DNA of 64,000 nucleotides from a virus (Duplodnaviria > Caudoviricetes): IMG/VR virus record IMGVR_UViG_3300049988_000124, positions 192,001-256,000 of that record; one strand, 5' to 3'. This document shows positions 47,581 to 61,289 of this stretch, piece by piece (positions within the stretch are counted from its first letter, which is position 1; the number at the start of each line of letters is the position of its first letter). The notes below the pieces were generated by a model, which was given only the letters and a program-made list of their open reading frames with translations, did no database searches and had not been told where the DNA came from. A program made the translations under genes and the position numbers.

Positions 47581-48096
47581 TTACGTTTGAGGGGATTCTC
47601 CGTCTTGTGATTCGCCGGTGTATCCGGCACTTCCGAGTGCGAACATAGACGTGTAACCAATGATATTCGTGCCGTCTGCGGACATGTCGTGAAAGAAAGA
47701 AGGAGGAGAGAGGTTGCGGTGTGAAGCCACTGAACCGTCCAGGTGAAATACTTCTCCATTGTCCCAGTCAATGGGAGGTGATGTCAAACTGTTACCACTG
47801 TGAAGCGCTTCGTGGGGACCCCATGGTTTCATCCCTTCTGGAATAACCAAGGAGAAAACCTTTCGCCAGGTCATGGCGTCGCAACAATCAACCTTTCGGC
47901 TGGTAACGCGGCCTTCTTCGATCAGGTCGATAAGAATTTCATAGATCGAATCAAGCGGCATATAGCGGTCATACACCGAGAGGATGTTTGACTGAATGCT
48001 TATTCCGTAAGCCAGGTTGCCCAGATTCGCGATGGCTTGAAGAACAAGAATGCTTGCTTTGTCGGTGAAGATGGTCGGCGTTCTCAGTTCGGACAT
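47581..48096 (-). CDS. Protein with N-terminal PadR-like winged helix
   Basis: 'LVLQAIANLGNLAYGISI...SIYEILIDLIEEGRVTSR'. Confidence 0.55.
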   Translation of the reverse strand: MSELRTPTIFTDKASILVLQAIANLGNLAYGISIQSNILSVYDRYMPLDSIYEILIDLIEEGRVTSRKVDCCDAMTWRKVFSLVIPEGMKPWGPHEALHSGNSLTSPPIDWDNGEVFHLDGSVASHRNLSPPSFFHDMSADGTNIIGYTSMFALGSAGYTGESQDGESPQT

Positions 48097-48602
48097 TTTG
48101 TTCTCTCCCTAGCACTTATTTGGTTCTGATTTTTCATGAAGTTGAAGAACGGCTCAAGCTTCATGCTGATCGCTTCGGCAGCGACGTTGTTCTTGGAATG
48201 GACGATGTAGACGAATGGACGGAATGTGACGTGTCCATCGAGGATGTTGTCGATGAGCCATTGGACGCAGTATCGACCTTCTCCGTTCCCATCACCTAGG
48301 TCATTGTCGAATGAGATCTTGTCAGGGATCCCGTTTGTTAAAATGTAATCTTCGAACTCTTCTTGTGTGCGCACAATCGTCCAAGGACCCAGACCGATGT
48401 CGATCCAGGTGACATCCTCAGGGCGACGTTCATCGTCGAGAAAGAGATTGCGAGGAACCGAGCGGAGAAAGATCTCTTTCGTGTTCCGCTCAATCTCTAC
48501 CCGAGCGTTGAAGTCACCAGCAGCATAACCCATTCGGTAGGCTACAACAATTGTACAGAGCACAGCGAGTGCGAGGACCAGTATACCTAGTATCTCATCC
48601 AC
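48084..48602 (-). CDS. Cyclic-phosphate-processing receiver-like domain protein with N-terminal TM helix
   Basis: 'LFLDDERRP...WTIVRT.EEF...GIPDKISFDNDLG...G..CVQWL...VHSKN'. Confidence 0.8.
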   Translation of the reverse strand: MDEILGILVLALAVLCTIVVAYRMGYAAGDFNARVEIERNTKEIFLRSVPRNLFLDDERRPEDVTWIDIGLGPWTIVRTQEEFEDYILTNGIPDKISFDNDLGDGNGEGRYCVQWLIDNILDGHVTFRPFVYIVHSKNNVAAEAISMKLEPFFNFMKNQNQISARERTKCPN

Positions 48603-55044: not shown

Positions 55045-55072
55045 AGTAAGAGGGGCACTCGCCCCTCTTACT
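55045..55072. terminator. Hairpin
   Basis: agtaagaggggc-actc-gcccctcttact. Confidence 0.75.
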
Positions 55073-58000
55073 CACAATCCTATTCTCTCATCTTCTAGTT
55101 CGAGGTTAGCGCTTTCCTTTGATGCGTCGATAACTTGCTTATACTCACGCTCGTCAGGATCAGGGCCTGCGAAGTCTGCACCAACGATGCTGTTGATGAG
55201 TTCGCGCACCTCTGCTAGGATCTCGTCGGTACGAGATGACACGTTGGGAACACCGCCAGTATCAAGGGTTACCTCGATAATCGTGACCGGGTGAATCTGT
55301 CCCAATCGGTCCGCACGAGCAATCACCTGATCATAGGTAGCCTGCCGGTAGGGACGATTGAGTAGCACCACCGTCGAGGCGGCAATCACCGGAACGGCCT
55401 CTGAGAGCGACTGCATAGTCGCACAGATCGGATTTACATTCGGGTCATCAGTGAAGCGGTTGATGTTCTTGGTTAGGTCTGCGTTGGTATCAGCGTAGAC
55501 CATGAGGGGCTCAAAGCCCTGATCGGTCAGATGCTTACTCAAGACCTTAACCGGTAGCACTGAGGAGGCAAAGAAGAGTGTCTTGGAGAGCGACTCTTTC
55601 ATGATCACGTCGGGCTTACAGAACACACCCAAGGCTGCTGCACATTCTGATCGACGCTTAGCGAGGATCGTGCCCAATGCCTCGCCTCGCACCTTCAGCT
55701 TCAAGTTCTTCACAGCGGACAGAGCATTTCTGAACTCACTGCGATTGATCGGTGGAATTGACGGATAGAGTTTGGTCCGCTCGTAGGTACGACACGCAGC
55801 CATCTGGTCCGTCATCATGAGGTCAGGTGCTCTCATGATCATCTTGAGATTCTTCTGATAGGTGTAGAAAGCTTGACGGTCTTGACGAGATTCTAACTTA
55901 TTCTCGTGGTAGTTCATGTAAAAATCAACGAGCTTACGATAATGCTTGATGTTGTCTTTATACATGGTCAACTGCTTCTGGATGAACTCTTTCATCTCCT
56001 CCCTGACTGTTGACATCAGGAATTTATGAGCAAGGGCTGGAGGCAATCTGACGGGAAGTTCTTTTACCACAGGCTTGGTGGCAGAGAAAGCAGACTTACC
56101 GACCATGAAGGCCATCTGCTGACCCAAACGATGTTGGAAGATTTCGCCTGCCTTACCAGGAGACATCGTGAAGATCTGCTTGAAGCGTCGCTCTGCATCA
56201 GCATCGAACCGGTGGTCCGAGCATTTGAGAAACGAGACCATCTCAGCGGCACTCTTCAGGATCGGTGAGCCTGATGTCCACAAGAATAGAACATCGTCTC
56301 TTAGAGTCTGGAGCTTTACGAGCTGCTGAGTACGGTTGGAGCGCCAGTCCGCAAAGTTGTGGGACTCATCGACGATCACGAAATATTTGCGACCTTGAGC
56401 GTGGATCTTCTTGCCGAGTTCGATCGCTTTGTTGATCTGCTCGAAGTTGAAGATGTAATATTCGGTCTTCTTCTCTGGCATCGGTAAACCAGAGTCACAG
56501 CACCAGTAAGTCGGAGTCTTCTTAAAGACGCTGTTGATCGTCTTTTCCCAAACGAGGTGGAGTGCCTTCTTGGGAGAGATGATGATCTTGACATCAGCGA
56601 CACTGGGAGGAACCACGCATTCAGCGACGCAGAGATCAAGGAAGGTGTTGTGCGTCACGATGTAATCGTTCGTAATGTACAAACGATCAGGGTGATCAAC
56701 AGAGATACACTGGGCCTGCTTCTTACCGACGTAACGAATCTTTTCAATACGCAGGCGCAAGCTGTCCTTGTACTGGTAGTTCTCAGGAGTCAGCTCCTTC
56801 TTGCGAGGAAGACGGAAGAGGTCGGTAGGCTCGCGGTAGCGAATGTTAACCTGATAAGCAGGCTTACCTTCCTTGCGCTCACCCTTGTAGGTGTAGTGCG
56901 TCTGTTTAGTCTTGATGCGAGCAAGACCACCAATGCTGCGAATCAACTCCTGTATGTGCTTAGCGAGCTGTTCGCTAGTTGTGCAGAATGACGTACTTCC
57001 ATTCTCACTGACGGTTCCGTCCGAATCCATCAGACCTTGAATAAGCGCAAGCTTCTGAGAGAAGGAGGCATTCAGGTAGACATCCGGAACAAACTTGGTA
57101 TGACTACGAGTACTGTTGAGTTTGAGAGCATGAAGCTGATCAACCAACATCGATCTCGACCAACGCTTCTCCCGTGTCTTCTTCACGACTTGATAGTCGT
57201 ACGAAGACCTGGACTTATCGGGCCGGTACACCAACTCAGAATCGTCGGGAAGCAGATGTGAGACCTGGTCTACAATGAAGCCATCTGCCGAGGAAATCGA
57301 CACCGTTCCTTCACGGATGTGTCCATCACCAAGGATGATGCCGAGAAGGTAGGGATCAATGGATAGCTGAACGTCTTCCTTGATCTCTGGCTCGGGAAGA
57401 GGAACGTAGAGACGACTGGGTTCGAGTTGGTGATTGTCCATATGTAGACGAATGTCAATGAAGGGAACGACCTTCCAACCATCCACACGACCGTCCTTGT
57501 TGGAGCGTGCCCAATCCTTGTGTCGAACTTTCCAGAGGTGGTCATCACAGCATTCCACTGAACGACCGTCCTCAAAGGTTACTTCGTACATGTCGAGCTC
57601 ACCTTGCGGATAAACTCCAGTAACGAACGAGGTTCCACCATCGGGTGTAACAATGGGCTGACCAACGGTCATGTCACCATTGCGCATCCATCCTGACGGA
57701 GTACGAATGAGATCTTCTAGGCCTAGCGCTTTACCACCACCAGGGGCAAAGCCGATGATGTAACCACGCAAGTCATAGCGCGGCATCCGGTCACCGAAGA
57801 GATGAAGGAACTCAATCTGCTTGGGCATGGCCTGCCACTTCATCTGATTGAGACGCTTCATGTCGATGATTGACTTAACCTCGCCGGTACTAACCTTGAA
57901 CCACGTGTCCTCGAGGAGTCCTTTGACGATCTTGTCGATGGTGCGCTTACCCGACCACGTCGTGCGCTCATCGTGACGCAATTTGGCAAGCATGAAGATT

Positions 58001-58233
58001 AGGTCGGGGACGAAGAAGCGATTGAGCGTGAAAGCAGTGTCGGTGATGGAGGTAAACATCTTCTTGGCGATCACGTCTGTCTCAAAGAGAATCTTGAAGT
58101 GATTGCGTAAGATGAGACCGTCGACACCGGTAATCTTGACCAGGTTACCTGTCTCTTTAACACTGATCATTCCGAAGGCTCGGGCGAAATATTCCATGAA
58201 TTTCATGACGGTTCCTGTCATGGCTAATAACAT
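55072..58233 (-). CDS. SNF2-like (SF2) helicase interrupted by an intein
   Basis: Walker A 'PGGGK|T' split by an insertion; 'VDESH', 'TSGSP', 'QVIARADRLGQ'. Confidence 0.88.
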   Translation of the reverse strand: MLLAMTGTVMKFMEYFARAFGMISVKETGNLVKITGVDGLILRNHFKILFETDVIAKKMFTSITDTAFTLNRFFVPDLIFMLAKLRHDERTTWSGKRTIDKIVKGLLEDTWFKVSTGEVKSIIDMKRLNQMKWQAMPKQIEFLHLFGDRMPRYDLRGYIIGFAPGGGKALGLEDLIRTPSGWMRNGDMTVGQPIVTPDGGTSFVTGVYPQGELDMYEVTFEDGRSVECCDDHLWKVRHKDWARSNKDGRVDGWKVVPFIDIRLHMDNHQLEPSRLYVPLPEPEIKEDVQLSIDPYLLGIILGDGHIREGTVSISSADGFIVDQVSHLLPDDSELVYRPDKSRSSYDYQVVKKTREKRWSRSMLVDQLHALKLNSTRSHTKFVPDVYLNASFSQKLALIQGLMDSDGTVSENGSTSFCTTSEQLAKHIQELIRSIGGLARIKTKQTHYTYKGERKEGKPAYQVNIRYREPTDLFRLPRKKELTPENYQYKDSLRLRIEKIRYVGKKQAQCISVDHPDRLYITNDYIVTHNTFLDLCVAECVVPPSVADVKIIISPKKALHLVWEKTINSVFKKTPTYWCCDSGLPMPEKKTEYYIFNFEQINKAIELGKKIHAQGRKYFVIVDESHNFADWRSNRTQQLVKLQTLRDDVLFLWTSGSPILKSAAEMVSFLKCSDHRFDADAERRFKQIFTMSPGKAGEIFQHRLGQQMAFMVGKSAFSATKPVVKELPVRLPPALAHKFLMSTVREEMKEFIQKQLTMYKDNIKHYRKLVDFYMNYHENKLESRQDRQAFYTYQKNLKMIMRAPDLMMTDQMAACRTYERTKLYPSIPPINRSEFRNALSAVKNLKLKVRGEALGTILAKRRSECAAALGVFCKPDVIMKESLSKTLFFASSVLPVKVLSKHLTDQGFEPLMVYADTNADLTKNINRFTDDPNVNPICATMQSLSEAVPVIAASTVVLLNRPYRQATYDQVIARADRLGQIHPVTIIEVTLDTGGVPNVSSRTDEILAEVRELINSIVGADFAGPDPDEREYKQVIDASKESANLELEDERIGL
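56647..57729 (-). mobile_element. Intein (361 aa, Ala-start, class-3-type) with LAGLIDADG homing endonuclease
   Basis: Starts 'ALGLEDLIRTPSGW', block B 'CCDDHLW', block F 'AQCISVD', ends 'ITNDYIVTHN|T'; LAGLIDADG-like 'LLGIILGDG' and 'IQGLMDSDG'. Confidence 0.92.
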
Positions 58234-58253
58234 AGGATTTTTGATGAAAGAAA

Positions 58254-58281
58254 GTAGGAGGGGGCTGATGCCCCCTCCTAC
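58254..58281. terminator. Hairpin after the kinase gene
   Basis: gtaggagggggc-tgat-gccccctcctac. Confidence 0.8.
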
Positions 58282-58288
58282 CCCTTAG

Positions 58289-59806
58289 TCAGTACGAACT
58301 AGTACAGTGAAAGATCTTCTGCAAGATCTGGCGAATCTCACCGATCTTGAACGGCTTCTTCAGAACCGTATATCCTTCAAGCTCTGCACTGTCAGAGAAA
58401 CCAGTCACGAAGACCACTTCCAAATCAGGGTGAAGGAGCTTGGCTGAGCGGATGACCTGTGCTCCGTTCATAACGGGCATGGCGTAGTCAATGACGACCA
58501 GGTCAGGACGGTTGTCCTTCAGGTAGACCAATGCATCCATACCGTCGACCGCTGTCTTGACGTGGTGACCAAGAAGCGTCAAGATCTCCGAGAGCGTCTC
58601 CCGGACACCTGGATCATCGTCGACCAGGAGGATGTTCTTGGCCTCACACATCTGGATGAGATTACCGGCTACTACCTCTTCCTGGAAGATCGCTGCGTTC
58701 TTAACGACGGGCAGACTGATCGTGATCGTGGTACCCTTCTCCGACGTCTTCTTGATGTAGACATCGCCGCCTGACTGATTAGCCAGACCGTAAACCATGC
58801 TGAGACCAAGACCTGTTCCCTTACCAATATCCTTGGTAGTGAAGAACGGCTCAAAGACGCGCGCCGCAACATCGGCAGGAATACCAATACCGGTATCAGT
58901 GACGTTGATCTCAACCTCGTCATTCTCGATGATCGTGGAGATCGTGAGACTACCGCCCTCGGGCATTGCGTCGCGAGCGTTGACCGCCAGGTTCAAGATA
59001 GCCAGTTCAAGCTGAACCGGATCAGTGCGCACCACTACGTCGGTGATGTTGGAGGTGGAGATCTGAATGTCTGGACCGATGGTCCGGGTGATCAACTGCC
59101 TGACGTTCATGATGACCGGAGCCAGTTCCACTTCCTTGATCTGGAGCTTCTGGTTACGCGAGAACGTCAGGAGCTGTGCAGTCAGATGTGATGCTCTCGA
59201 TATTGCCTCAATACCAACACCCACCCAGCGCGGTACACGGTCACTGTGGGGATTACTACTGATGAGCTCGAGGCTACCACTGATGGCTTGGACGAGATTG
59301 TTAAAGTCGTGCGCAATGCCGCCTGTTAACTGGCCCACTGCTTCCATCTTCTGTGACTGGAGCAGGTGAGTCTGTGCGCGCTCTTTCTCGTCCTTCTCGA
59401 TCTTAAGCTCTTGGATCTTCTGCTCGAGCTGGCGATTAAGGGCATCAATCTTAGCAAAAGAAGGAAGCTTGATCGCTGTTGGAATAAGGAACCACAGACT
59501 ACCCAAGGCTAGAATGGAGAGAAGTGAGGAAATGAGTTGCATGGTGGGTGAGGGTGAGTGGTTCTCCACGGTCATCCCAAAAACGGCCCAGGCTCTACCG
59601 AGCGCACAAACAGCATTTGAGATCAGGAAGAACCAGATAAACTTGTTGTCGCGAAGGTCAGGGCGTTCCTTTAGAACCTTGGTCGACAACGTGGCATTAG
59701 TTGTGTGAAAAGCACCAGCGAAGAGATGGGTAAGAATGGAGGCAAGAACAGGCCAGGGATTCGGCCCGAAATACTGAACGGCTAATAGCCAAAAATCTGC
59801 GGACAC
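58289..59806 (-). CDS. Membrane-bound hybrid sensor histidine kinase (TM sensor - HisKA - HATPase_c - REC)
   Basis: H-box '[10 protein letters not shown]', N-box '[10 protein letters not shown]', 'DTGIGI', 'FEPFFTTK', 'GTGLGLS'; receiver 'LLVDDD...VVIDYAMP...VTG...KKPF'. Confidence 0.95.
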
Positions 59807-59821
59807 GGGGATGATATTCCT

Positions 59822-60157
59822 TTAACCAGTATAAAGCGAGGGGCTGTATATATCGAAGGAATCGCCGCGTTGCTTAAAGGCACGACCATTCCAAGTCACT
59901 TGTTTTTGCAAGAACTTTTGCTTGTCAAAGACCACGGTGTCCCCGACCTTCATGATCTGCATGTCGTGGACTTGGGAGAGGTCTGGGTCACTAGCAAGGT
60001 GAACCGGCATTCCAGTTTTGTCGGCAACGTTGATGTAGAATGAATTCTGTTGTCCGGCAGGCAGATCAGTAATGATCTGAATGATCGCGCCGGAGCCCGG
60101 AGGCTCACGGTGAGTGTGAGTAAGTCGTTGGACTTGCGTGATCTTTGCCGTGCGCAT
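59822..60157 (-). CDS. Hypothetical protein co-transcribed with the kinase
   Basis: 111 aa, GAGGA RBS; its stop lies just upstream of the kinase start. Confidence 0.65.
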   Translation of the reverse strand: MRTAKITQVQRLTHTHREPPGSGAIIQIITDLPAGQQNSFYINVADKTGMPVHLASDPDLSQVHDMQIMKVGDTVVFDKQKFLQKQVTWNGRAFKQRGDSFDIYSPSLYTG

Positions 60158-60401
60158 AACGTCCTCGATAAAAGCGATAGGGGTTCATATCAGAGTCGGA
60201 CTAAATAGTCCCTAGAGGGCTAAATGAAATTCTTCTTTGTTGCTGTCTCTTGGTATGAGCCTTCTAAACTCCAGTAGAAAGAATCGATTACATGCTCTTC
60301 AGGAACATACACCACGAGAGAGTGTGGATCATATCGCTATTAACATTGTTCTGGGTTGGAGTGTTCGCTAAATACTACGGTTACTAAGGGGAGGGGTCCA
60401 G

Positions 60402-61289
60402 GTGACTCAGGAGATTCTACGCTCAAAGCAAGACAAGTCCATTAACTTTGTAACACACGCCGATGATGGTGGTAAGATCGAAGCTCGCTTTGTTCAACGC
60501 GAAGAAGACACGATCATTGTCTACCTCTCCTCGATGACGGGGTGCAACCTTAGTTGTCGTTTCTGCCATCTGACCCAGATGCACGAGACCACGATGACGG
60601 CCGTTGACATCGATGGGTATCTTACCCAAGCCCGCGATGTTCTGACGCTCGCTGCCAAAGAAGGCAAGCTTGCCAATGTTCAGACGGTGCATTTCAACTT
60701 CATGGCGAGGGGAGATGCTCTATCGAACATCTACTTTGTCAACAAGACCGAGTTGTTGTTCTACCGGCTAGATAGTCTCTCGGCTGAACATGGTCTTATC
60801 TCCAAGTTCAAGATCTCCACGATCTTTCCCAACACACTCCTGGATAGCTTCACCCTTCCTATGTTGAAAGAATGGGTGGAGCAGGTCTACGATCTTCCCT
60901 ACGACGTTGAGTTCTATTACTCCCTTTATTCACTGGACGAGGCGTTCAGGAAGAGGTGGATTCCCAAAGGAATGGATCCCGAACGTGTCGGTTATCTCTT
61001 TGAGGGAACAGAGGGAAAGCTTCGTCTCCATCACGCCCTGATCGACAAAGAGAATTGCTCACTGGCTAACACCAATCCGATCAAGAGTTGGTTGGTCAGG
61101 TATGACATCAAATGTCGTTTAAACATCGTACGCTATAATCCTTTCAACAACGGATCAGGTGTAGAAGCCTCCGACGGGGACATTCGCACTTATTGTGGTA
61201 TCATGTCATTGTGCCCCAATATCCTGGGTACTTACGTAGTCAGTCGCGTCGGTCTCGACGTCAAAGCTAGTTGCGGAACATTCGTGTGA
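60402..61289 (+). CDS. RlmN/Cfr-like radical SAM protein
   Basis: 'SSMTGCNLSCRFC' (CX3CX2C), 'FMARGDAL' (cf. MGMGEP), 'SLYS', 'LNIVRYNP', C-terminal 'ASCG'. Confidence 0.85.
   Translation: MTQEILRSKQDKSINFVTHADDGGKIEARFVQREEDTIIVYLSSMTGCNLSCRFCHLTQMHETTMTAVDIDGYLTQARDVLTLAAKEGKLANVQTVHFNFMARGDALSNIYFVNKTELLFYRLDSLSAEHGLISKFKISTIFPNTLLDSFTLPMLKEWVEQVYDLPYDVEFYYSLYSLDEAFRKRWIPKGMDPERVGYLFEGTEGKLRLHHALIDKENCSLANTNPIKSWLVRYDIKCRLNIVRYNPFNNGSGVEASDGDIRTYCGIMSLCPNILGTYVVSRVGLDVKASCGTFV

Follow-up and report, generated by a model that had tools for sequence, protein, structure and literature searches.

What would a bacteriophage do with a protein built like an ethylene receptor? The question is raised by a 64,000-nucleotide stretch of DNA, here called the window, which corresponds to positions 192001-256000 in a virus record of 307,821 bp (IMG/VR IMGVR_UViG_3300049988_000124; Duplodnaviria, Caudoviricetes) classed as complete by CheckV. 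On its minus strand, at 58289..59806, lies a gene for a 505-residue hybrid histidine kinase, P0001, whose N-terminal part resembles the ethylene-binding domain (EBD) of the plant receptor ETR1. Ethylene is a major plant signal in the leaf habitat, and complete sensor kinases are, to our knowledge, rare in lytic phages. A first-pass annotation of the sequence had taken the protein for a phage sensor of a membrane, gas or plant-derived cue, equipped with a rewired metal site and feeding phosphate into a host relay. Judged from its sequence, it is a genuine and intact phage gene for a membrane-anchored hybrid kinase, whose closest cellular kin are the EBD-HisKA-HATPase-REC kinases of Sphingomonadaceae. 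If the reading set out below is true, a phage takes over a two-component relay of its host with a kinase of its own, and does so in the leaf habitat.

The kinase and its ancestry

The gene starts with GTG, which stands 15 nt past the stop of the preceding 111-codon gene and has AAGGA about 11 nt on its 5´ side. Since no in-frame Met precedes residue 78 (the first occurs there or later), GTG is the sole start that preserves the first membrane helix. The protein is made up of a diverged EBD (ETR1_N) homolog at residues 1-116 (59459..59806, minus strand like all parts of the gene), a coiled-coil linker at residues 117-157 (59336..59458) bearing the LPS...LN..L motif common to bacterial EBD kinases, a HisKA/DHp domain at residues 158-219 (59150..59335), an HATPase_c catalytic domain at residues 262-367 (58706..59023) and a receiver domain (REC) at residues 392-495 (58322..58633). 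The phospho-acceptors are H166 (codon 59309-59311), within the sequence HDFNN, and D440 (codon 58487-58489) in the receiver.

All three signalling domains exceed the Pfam gathering cutoffs (HisKA 31.3, HATPase_c 84.7, Response_reg 68.3 bits). Besides H166, the kinase boxes comprise the N-box (N272/N276), G1 (D304-x-G-x-G308), F-box (F318) and G2 (G328-x-G-x-G-x-G334), and the receiver set comprises D396/D397, D440, T468 and K484. Catalytic and receiver motifs are invariant in all eight phage copies of the gene that were compared. By domains and motifs P0001 is a HisKA-class hybrid histidine kinase; the intact reading frame, the Pfam scores and the full set of motifs bear out the earlier description of a complete protein, from membrane part to receiver, with all catalytic residues.

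In its core the protein follows the CckA/PRK13557 'AHDFNN' type, with scores of 298 and 264 bits that stay well under the equivalog cutoffs, and the HDFNN H-box together with these matches agrees with the alphaproteobacterial, CckA-like type assigned to it before. NCBIfam CckA models are its second and third best matches. An identity as CckA ortholog was considered and rejected in view of the scores of these models (264 and 228.5 bits, where 1000 is required), a different sensor and the lack of any PAS domain in the kinase by Pfam scan. The kinases of the CckA/CcsA-ChpT-CtrA system of Sphingomonas melonis share with P0001 the AHDFNN HisKA subtype and the hybrid build with a receiver. CckA, unlike P0001, has PAS domains and another sensor, and transfer from the phage kinase to ChpT would be a candidate step.

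The Pfam family ETR1_N (PF25487) matches the sensor below threshold, at 16.9 to 21.4 bits against a gathering cutoff of 27 (residues 1-150: 21.2 bits, E 3.6e-4); 62 of the 64 aligned relatives match it at E<=0.01. When residues 1-135, a stretch free of kinase sequence, served by themselves as phmmer query against 1.84 billion (1.84e9) proteins, only five others passed E<1e-3 (E 1e-4 to 7e-4). Each of these is a strong ETR1_N member (124-132 bits), and their outputs are unrelated, PAS, GAF and other kinases among them. With a hidden Markov model (HMM) made from the transmembrane (TM) parts of 55 bacterial EBDs, the phage TM part scored 18.8 bits, as against at most 6.8 in 200 shuffles, and the phage relatives form a graded series on this HMM that reaches 181 bits. 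The N-termini of the phage kinase and of bacterial ETR1_N kinases align colinearly. Profile comparison, for which the annotation had called, thus upholds the homology it had noticed by eye, the sub-threshold Pfam score included: on sequence grounds the sensor is truly, if very distantly, homologous to the ETR1-type EBD.

An AF2 model (pLDDT 88.6) has helices at residues 17-47, 55-81 and 87-112, which are the sensor helices TM1, TM2 and TM3 (within 59459..59806), and at 117-149, in the coiled coil. Three hydropathy peaks are present in the sensor, that of TM1 being weak, its hydrophobicity eroded. A fold search with the sensor model found plant ethylene receptors aligned N-terminus to N-terminus (TM-score 0.43-0.46, E 0.3-0.9), amid unrelated small helical membrane proteins. 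The modelled fold is consistent with an EBD, a matter in which the fold search does not discriminate.

The assignment of the gene to a phage stands on three kinds of evidence. The window encodes a homolog of the phiKZ-type multisubunit RNA polymerase beta subunit, 24-31% identical to those of Erwinia, Ralstonia, Serratia and Pseudomonas jumbo phages. The seven closest relatives of the kinase (44-56% identity) lie on contigs of 12-283 kb in a shared gene order, which runs from a 295-aa radical-SAM-like gene, encoded on the other strand, over a gene of 108-111 aa and the kinase to an SNF2 helicase that may or may not contain a LAGLIDADG intein (synteny of the 295-aa gene, the 111-aa gene, the kinase and the helicase being seen in contigs L005, L006, L007 and L009). 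GC content of the kinase gene, overall and at third codon positions (GC3), matches its own phage each time (0.37-0.52), versus a GC of 0.66 and a GC3 of 0.82 in the Sphingomonas glaciei ortholog. The eight phage-contig copies form one clade (SH-aLRT 99; UFBoot/SH-aLRT 100/99) in trees that have midpoint roots only. This fits a single capture by the ancestor of a phiKZ-like jumbo phage group.

After the phage relatives, the next-best full-length matches (roughly 40% identical across 89-97% of the query) belong to a large ETR1_N + HisKA + HATPase + REC family, and the named bacterial relatives are all Sphingomonas, Allosphingosinicella or Sphingomicrobium. Two uncharacterised Sphingomonadaceae kinases, P0042 of S. 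glaciei and P0061 of S. arenae, represent the architecture: they have the same four parts and the same length as the phage kinase, and like it a colinear three-helix sensor, the LPS motif, the coiled coil and the HDFNN H-box. Unlike it, the Sphingomonadaceae kinases keep invariant D, Y, I, C, H and K and the PHGYC motif, and match ETR1_N with E values down to 6e-43. The best-conserved stretch common to phage and bacterial proteins is the TM3/LPS/coiled-coil/DHp segment.

AzoEtr1 of Azospirillum brasilense and SynEtr1 of Synechocystis, which were experimentally shown to be bacterial ethylene receptors (PMC11819568, PMC6682694), likewise join a homologous N-terminal three-helix domain to a histidine kinase. 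They keep all seven ethylene-binding residues and bind ethylene, whereas the phage kinase is without the Asp, His and Lys equivalents; it differs from them also in being phage-encoded, with a fused receiver and no cognate regulator gene. Arabidopsis ETR1 belongs to the same domain family and is a hybrid kinase with a receiver as well, but it has a GAF domain, acts via CTR1 in the endoplasmic reticulum membrane and, in the wild type, has its Cu site intact. Bacterial EBD kinases are already known (PMC7700396, PMC11819568); in the literature we found no paper on a phage-encoded EBD (ethylene-receptor-type) kinase. Among GenBank phages (50,697 records) no match covers the sensor, hits being to kinase cores only, many of them in mislabelled bacterial records, and none of these records matches the window at the nucleotide level. 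A scan of IMG/VR yielded 76 loci with related kinase cores and no close relative among them; the only two that reach the N-terminus, L062 and L063, have a different multi-helix membrane domain and lie in GC-rich DNA.

Binding pocket and constraint on the sensor

In ETR1, C65 and H69 chelate Cu(I), and D25 orients H69 and bridges to K91 (PMC10266040, PMC11971883). Position 25 of EBDs is Asp in 93.55% and Asn in 3.67% of cases (PMC10266040). The arrangement D-40-C-4-H-19-K, whose columns are 100% invariant in 55 bacterial relatives of the phage kinase, has the spacing of AzoEtr1 D35/C75/H79/K98, which match ETR1 D25/C65/H69/K91 (PMC11819568). The phage equivalents are His27, Cys67, Arg71 and Gln90, with the Cys alone kept, exactly as the annotation had called the first three. 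Where the family has invariant Tyr, Ile and YFSIP, P0001 has His34, Asn64 and FHTTN, and the periplasmic PHGYC motif is missing. The Tyr and Ile columns presumably correspond to ETR1 Y32 and I62, as judged by spacing and, reportedly, by the work of Wang et al. 2006. By these residue comparisons the canonical copper/ethylene site is lost in P0001.

The other phage copies vary at the same positions. P0005 has a fully canonical pocket and the PHGYC motif. In P0006 the Cys65 position holds Tyr, which is the change found in Arabidopsis etr1-1 (C65Y), a dominant ethylene-insensitive allele of ETR1 (PMC11971883, PMC10266040); in P0008 it holds Arg. The sensor domain itself is retained, not deleted, in every phage copy. 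The clade amounts to a natural mutagenesis series of the pocket on one conserved core, with the canonical P0005, the etr1-1-like P0006 and the His/Arg/Gln set of P0001, and the series could help to dissect the roles of pocket residues.

Comparison of the two halves of the protein revealed opposite constraint in phage and host copies. Among the bacterial kinases, mean pairwise identity is 0.73 in the sensor versus 0.54 in core plus receiver, and the sensor value is the higher one in 1475 of 1485 pairs. For the eight phage copies the figures are 0.24 and 0.57, the sensor being higher in none of the 28 pairs, and divergence of the core is similar to that in bacteria. Identity between phage and bacterial sensors is just 16-18%. 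In these phages the output machinery is conserved and the ligand-binding domain left to drift or diversify, and the opposite constraint in phage and host copies shows which half of a captured sensor a virus needs. These results do not support gas sensing through a rewired site in the form first proposed: the equivalents of D25, H69 and K91 are all replaced, PHGYC is gone, and the sensor is the fastest-evolving part in the phage clade. As far as the alignments go, relaxed or redirected constraint fits the residue swaps and the fast sensor evolution better than a conserved new ligand site does.

Relay partners, host and rival readings

The whole phage genome contains one receiver domain, the kinase's own, and the kinase is its only two-component gene. 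No Hpt, separate response regulator or separate ChpT-type protein was found in the window or in the whole genome, so that the lack of a cognate partner, noted earlier for the window, applies genome-wide. A genome match to PF10090 (ChpT-type) is no separate Hpt, as it falls inside the kinase's own ATPase domain. Three cREC (PF20274) domains are present in the phage genome, one of them in the window; their positions are 48084-48602 of the window (minus strand) and G000:C1:104292-105066. They were not counted as partners of the kinase because cREC, an NAD+/cyclic-phosphate conflict class, is reported never to occur in histidine-kinase systems (PMC7824862). With neither an Hpt nor a response regulator encoded by the phage, phosphotransfer of any kind must draw on proteins of the host.

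Which host this might be is indicated by a permuted (two-piece type) tmRNA at G000:C1 ~302.8-303.3 kb (L087:6825-7275, minus strand), with the tag DKKPSTVNANNPAVAANDNEMDIRLVA. It passes the Rfam thresholds for both tmRNA_permuted and alpha_tmRNA, and a permuted tmRNA of alpha type is a sign of an alphaproteobacterial host. Next to it are tRNA genes for Lys, Thr, Cys, Asn and Tyr, five in all. Among the listed matches of the kinase gene that have a named habitat, all come from leaf or phyllosphere metagenomes, and at least half of the gene's words are present in two leaf metagenomes from two different studies. In leaf metagenome X2, which comes from a different study, two contigs cover 58000-59334 and 59385-60400 without a single difference; identical fragments occur in X3-X5, and contigs from four leaf runs equal the window wherever they overlap it. 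Because of this identity natural variants for dN/dS are absent. The plant link suggested at first is strengthened by the recurrence of the phage in leaf metagenomes. From the tmRNA, the habitat and the Sphingomonadaceae relatives, the host is probably a Sphingomonas-like leaf bacterium.

Depth of leaf-metagenome reads has spikes with GC-rich loose ends at 58810-58890 (G2-box) and 59296-59376 (H-box). They reflect cross-mapping of abundant GC-rich bacterial CckA-type kinases in the same samples.

Sphingomonas melonis has a branched relay, CcsA/CckA-ChpT-CtrA, that governs motility, exopolysaccharide and biofilm, and c-di-GMP (Francez-Charlot 2015, cited in PMC8921679). Because more than one hybrid kinase feeds ChpT-CtrA there, ChpT is the leading candidate acceptor, and by this analogy ChpT-CtrA is a reasonable guess for the target of the phage kinase. 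The number of full CtrA boxes (TTAA-N7-TTAA) in the window, 0 against 0.36 expected, is uninformative. The EBD kinase ortholog of S. glaciei is likewise an orphan, with no adjacent partner.

We think it rather likely that P0001 is a hybrid kinase of host origin which the phage retains for the sake of its output, and which is mostly decoupled from ethylene and acts on an Hpt/ChpT-type relay of the host. The kinase would insert in the host inner membrane and dimerise via its TM and DHp helices, autophosphorylate on H166, hand the phosphoryl group on to D440 in its own receiver and trade phosphate with an Hpt of the host, for which a ChpT-CtrA type relay is the leading candidate. It could act as a ligand-independent input or, through H-D-x-x-N, the phosphatase motif of HisKA kinases, as a drain. 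An ethylene-blind copy of the host receptor might thereby override a surface/motility/biofilm-type programme of the host during infection. ETR1 pocket mutants signal as though ethylene were absent (PMC11971883), and by likeness to them the phage kinase would behave as an ethylene-blind host receptor. What remains of the original interpretation is the phage gene, the hybrid kinase, the EBD homology, the lack of a phage-encoded partner and the plant link; what lacks support, in the form first given, is the gas-sensing role of the altered site.

Several points weigh against a kinase kept for output. The sensor may owe its fast evolution to diversifying selection just as well as to relaxed constraint, and the pairs in the identity comparison are not phylogenetically independent, large as the contrast is. 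The shared polar sets H27/H34/N37 and N64/C67/R71 could form a new, selected ligand or metal site and so mean something other than loss of sensing. Both the candidate host partner and the sense of signalling, as kinase or as phosphatase, are inferences, and the bacterial copy in S. glaciei is itself an orphan. Finally, the phage clade falls outside the sampled bacterial clades in midpoint-rooted trees, which leaves more than one possible donor lineage.

The best of the alternatives, possible although in our view doubtful, is a rewired sensor, in which His27, His34, Asn37, Asn64, Cys67 and Arg71 would line a pocket for another metal or small ligand (some cue from leaf or envelope) that gates the kinase and sets the timing of the phage programme. 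The six residues are common to P0001, P0002 and P0003, the three closest copies, at a sensor identity of 27-50%; H27, H34 and N37 share one face of TM1 and N64, C67 and R71 one face of TM2, which are the helix faces that form the ETR1 pocket. Polar residues kept within TM helices are usually functional, and the retention of the domain in every phage copy speaks for the same idea. However, the set is limited to three sequences, whose sensors form one clade with a stem of 2.06 substitutions per site, and shared ancestry on this long branch explains its recurrence. Elsewhere in the phage copies the pocket reads NYNHRK, NYNYKR or DYLRHK, Arg is a poor metal ligand, and the hydrophobicity of TM1 is eroded.

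A kinase kept for output also has to be weighed against a dominant-negative decoy, in which mixed dimers with a host EBD kinase, formed via TM and DHp helices, would silence or lock that kinase, the phage protein's own catalysis being irrelevant. Descent from the host receptor family and the good conservation of the TM3/LPS/coiled-coil/DHp segment would suit such a role. We nevertheless hold it to be quite improbable: the ATP-binding and receiver motifs, needless for a pure decoy, are all invariant in the phage clade, and with so low a sensor identity to the bacterial proteins (16-18%) heterodimer specificity is doubtful.

Even less credit can be given to a genuine ethylene receptor that has preserved the binding of Cu(I) and ethylene found in ETR1, SynEtr1 and AzoEtr1. 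EBD homology is real, Cys67 is kept, the habitat is the leaf and the sister copy P0005 is canonical; yet Arg, His and Gln stand for His69, Asp25 and Lys91 at positions that are 100% invariant in the bacterial family, and the sensor scores under the ETR1_N cutoff. In ETR1, D25A abolishes ethylene binding and D25N cuts affinity ~100-fold (PMC10266040, PMC11971883). A high-affinity ethylene sensor is an unlikely description of P0001. The weakest reading, that of a non-functional passenger or an artefact of assembly or contamination, could appeal to a host-derived gene with a strongly diverged sensor, but is hardly tenable and already largely refuted by the intact 505-aa open reading frame, the invariant catalytic residues, the conserved position in sister phages, the phage-matching GC and the two X2 contigs of an independent leaf study that tile the stretch with 0 differences.

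Neighbouring genes

Throughout the phage clade the kinase is adjoined by a conserved 111-aa gene, here at 59822..60157 on the minus strand, whose product is 38-54% identical in five phage contigs. The kinase can lie on either side of it, and in L005 on both. In L005-L007 the start of the small gene overlaps the stop of the upstream kinase by 4 bp; in these sister phages it is translationally coupled to that kinase. At L005:8023-11548 (ENA contig k141_616514), the paralogous EBD kinases P0005 and P0008 flank the 111-aa gene.

Neither Pfam nor PHROG gave a family for the 111-aa protein, which is modelled as a small beta-barrel (pLDDT 83). Within the whole PDB representative set, VIA-align placed PmrD at rank 1 (2rqx: Z 6.2, root-mean-square deviation 3.2, 76 of 81 residues), where Z<8 is common by chance, and again at rank 2 (4hn7, Z 5.1), with IraM-RssB at rank 9 (Z 4.5), likewise in the chance range. 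The list of ESM Atlas structures for the protein includes a PmrD/IraM cluster. Foldseek with the model gave nothing at E<=1e-3, and the lack of a Pfam match includes PF11183. PmrD and IraM are connectors that bind receiver domains. From the structural models, a PmrD/IraM-like fold of the 111-aa protein is a weak lead.

A bolder scheme would join these elements: a clade of leaf jumbo phages has domesticated the host ethylene receptor kinase, P0005-type copies with canonical pockets being the first viral ethylene receptors and others, P0001 included, sensing a different leaf or envelope cue with a remodelled polar pocket (His/His/Asn/Asn/Cys/Arg). The kinase, working with the small PmrD-like protein, would tie the development of the phage, via the host ChpT-CtrA relay, to the physiological state of the plant. 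We consider this unlikely as a whole.

Between the kinase stop and the helicase start, at 58259..58275 (minus strand), there is a terminator-like hairpin, a consensus match only, and the regional count of such sites near the kinase is not above chance; it may close a two-gene unit. On the other side, a 295-aa radical-SAM-like gene at 60402..61289 (plus strand; phrog_27142, 233 bits; Pfam Radical_SAM sub-threshold) diverges from the 111-aa/kinase unit across a spacer of ~245 nt and serves as a syntenic anchor, a 295-aa gene being found in the same place in L009. The downstream anchor is an SNF2-type helicase gene at 55072..58233 (minus strand), whose product carries, around residues 160-530, an insert resembling a LAGLIDADG homing endonuclease or intein (Pfam LAGLIDADG_3 and Hom_end; PHROG matches to intein-bearing terminases and primases). 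Helicases of sister phages have 683 aa without the intein (L007, L009) and 1039 aa with it (L005).

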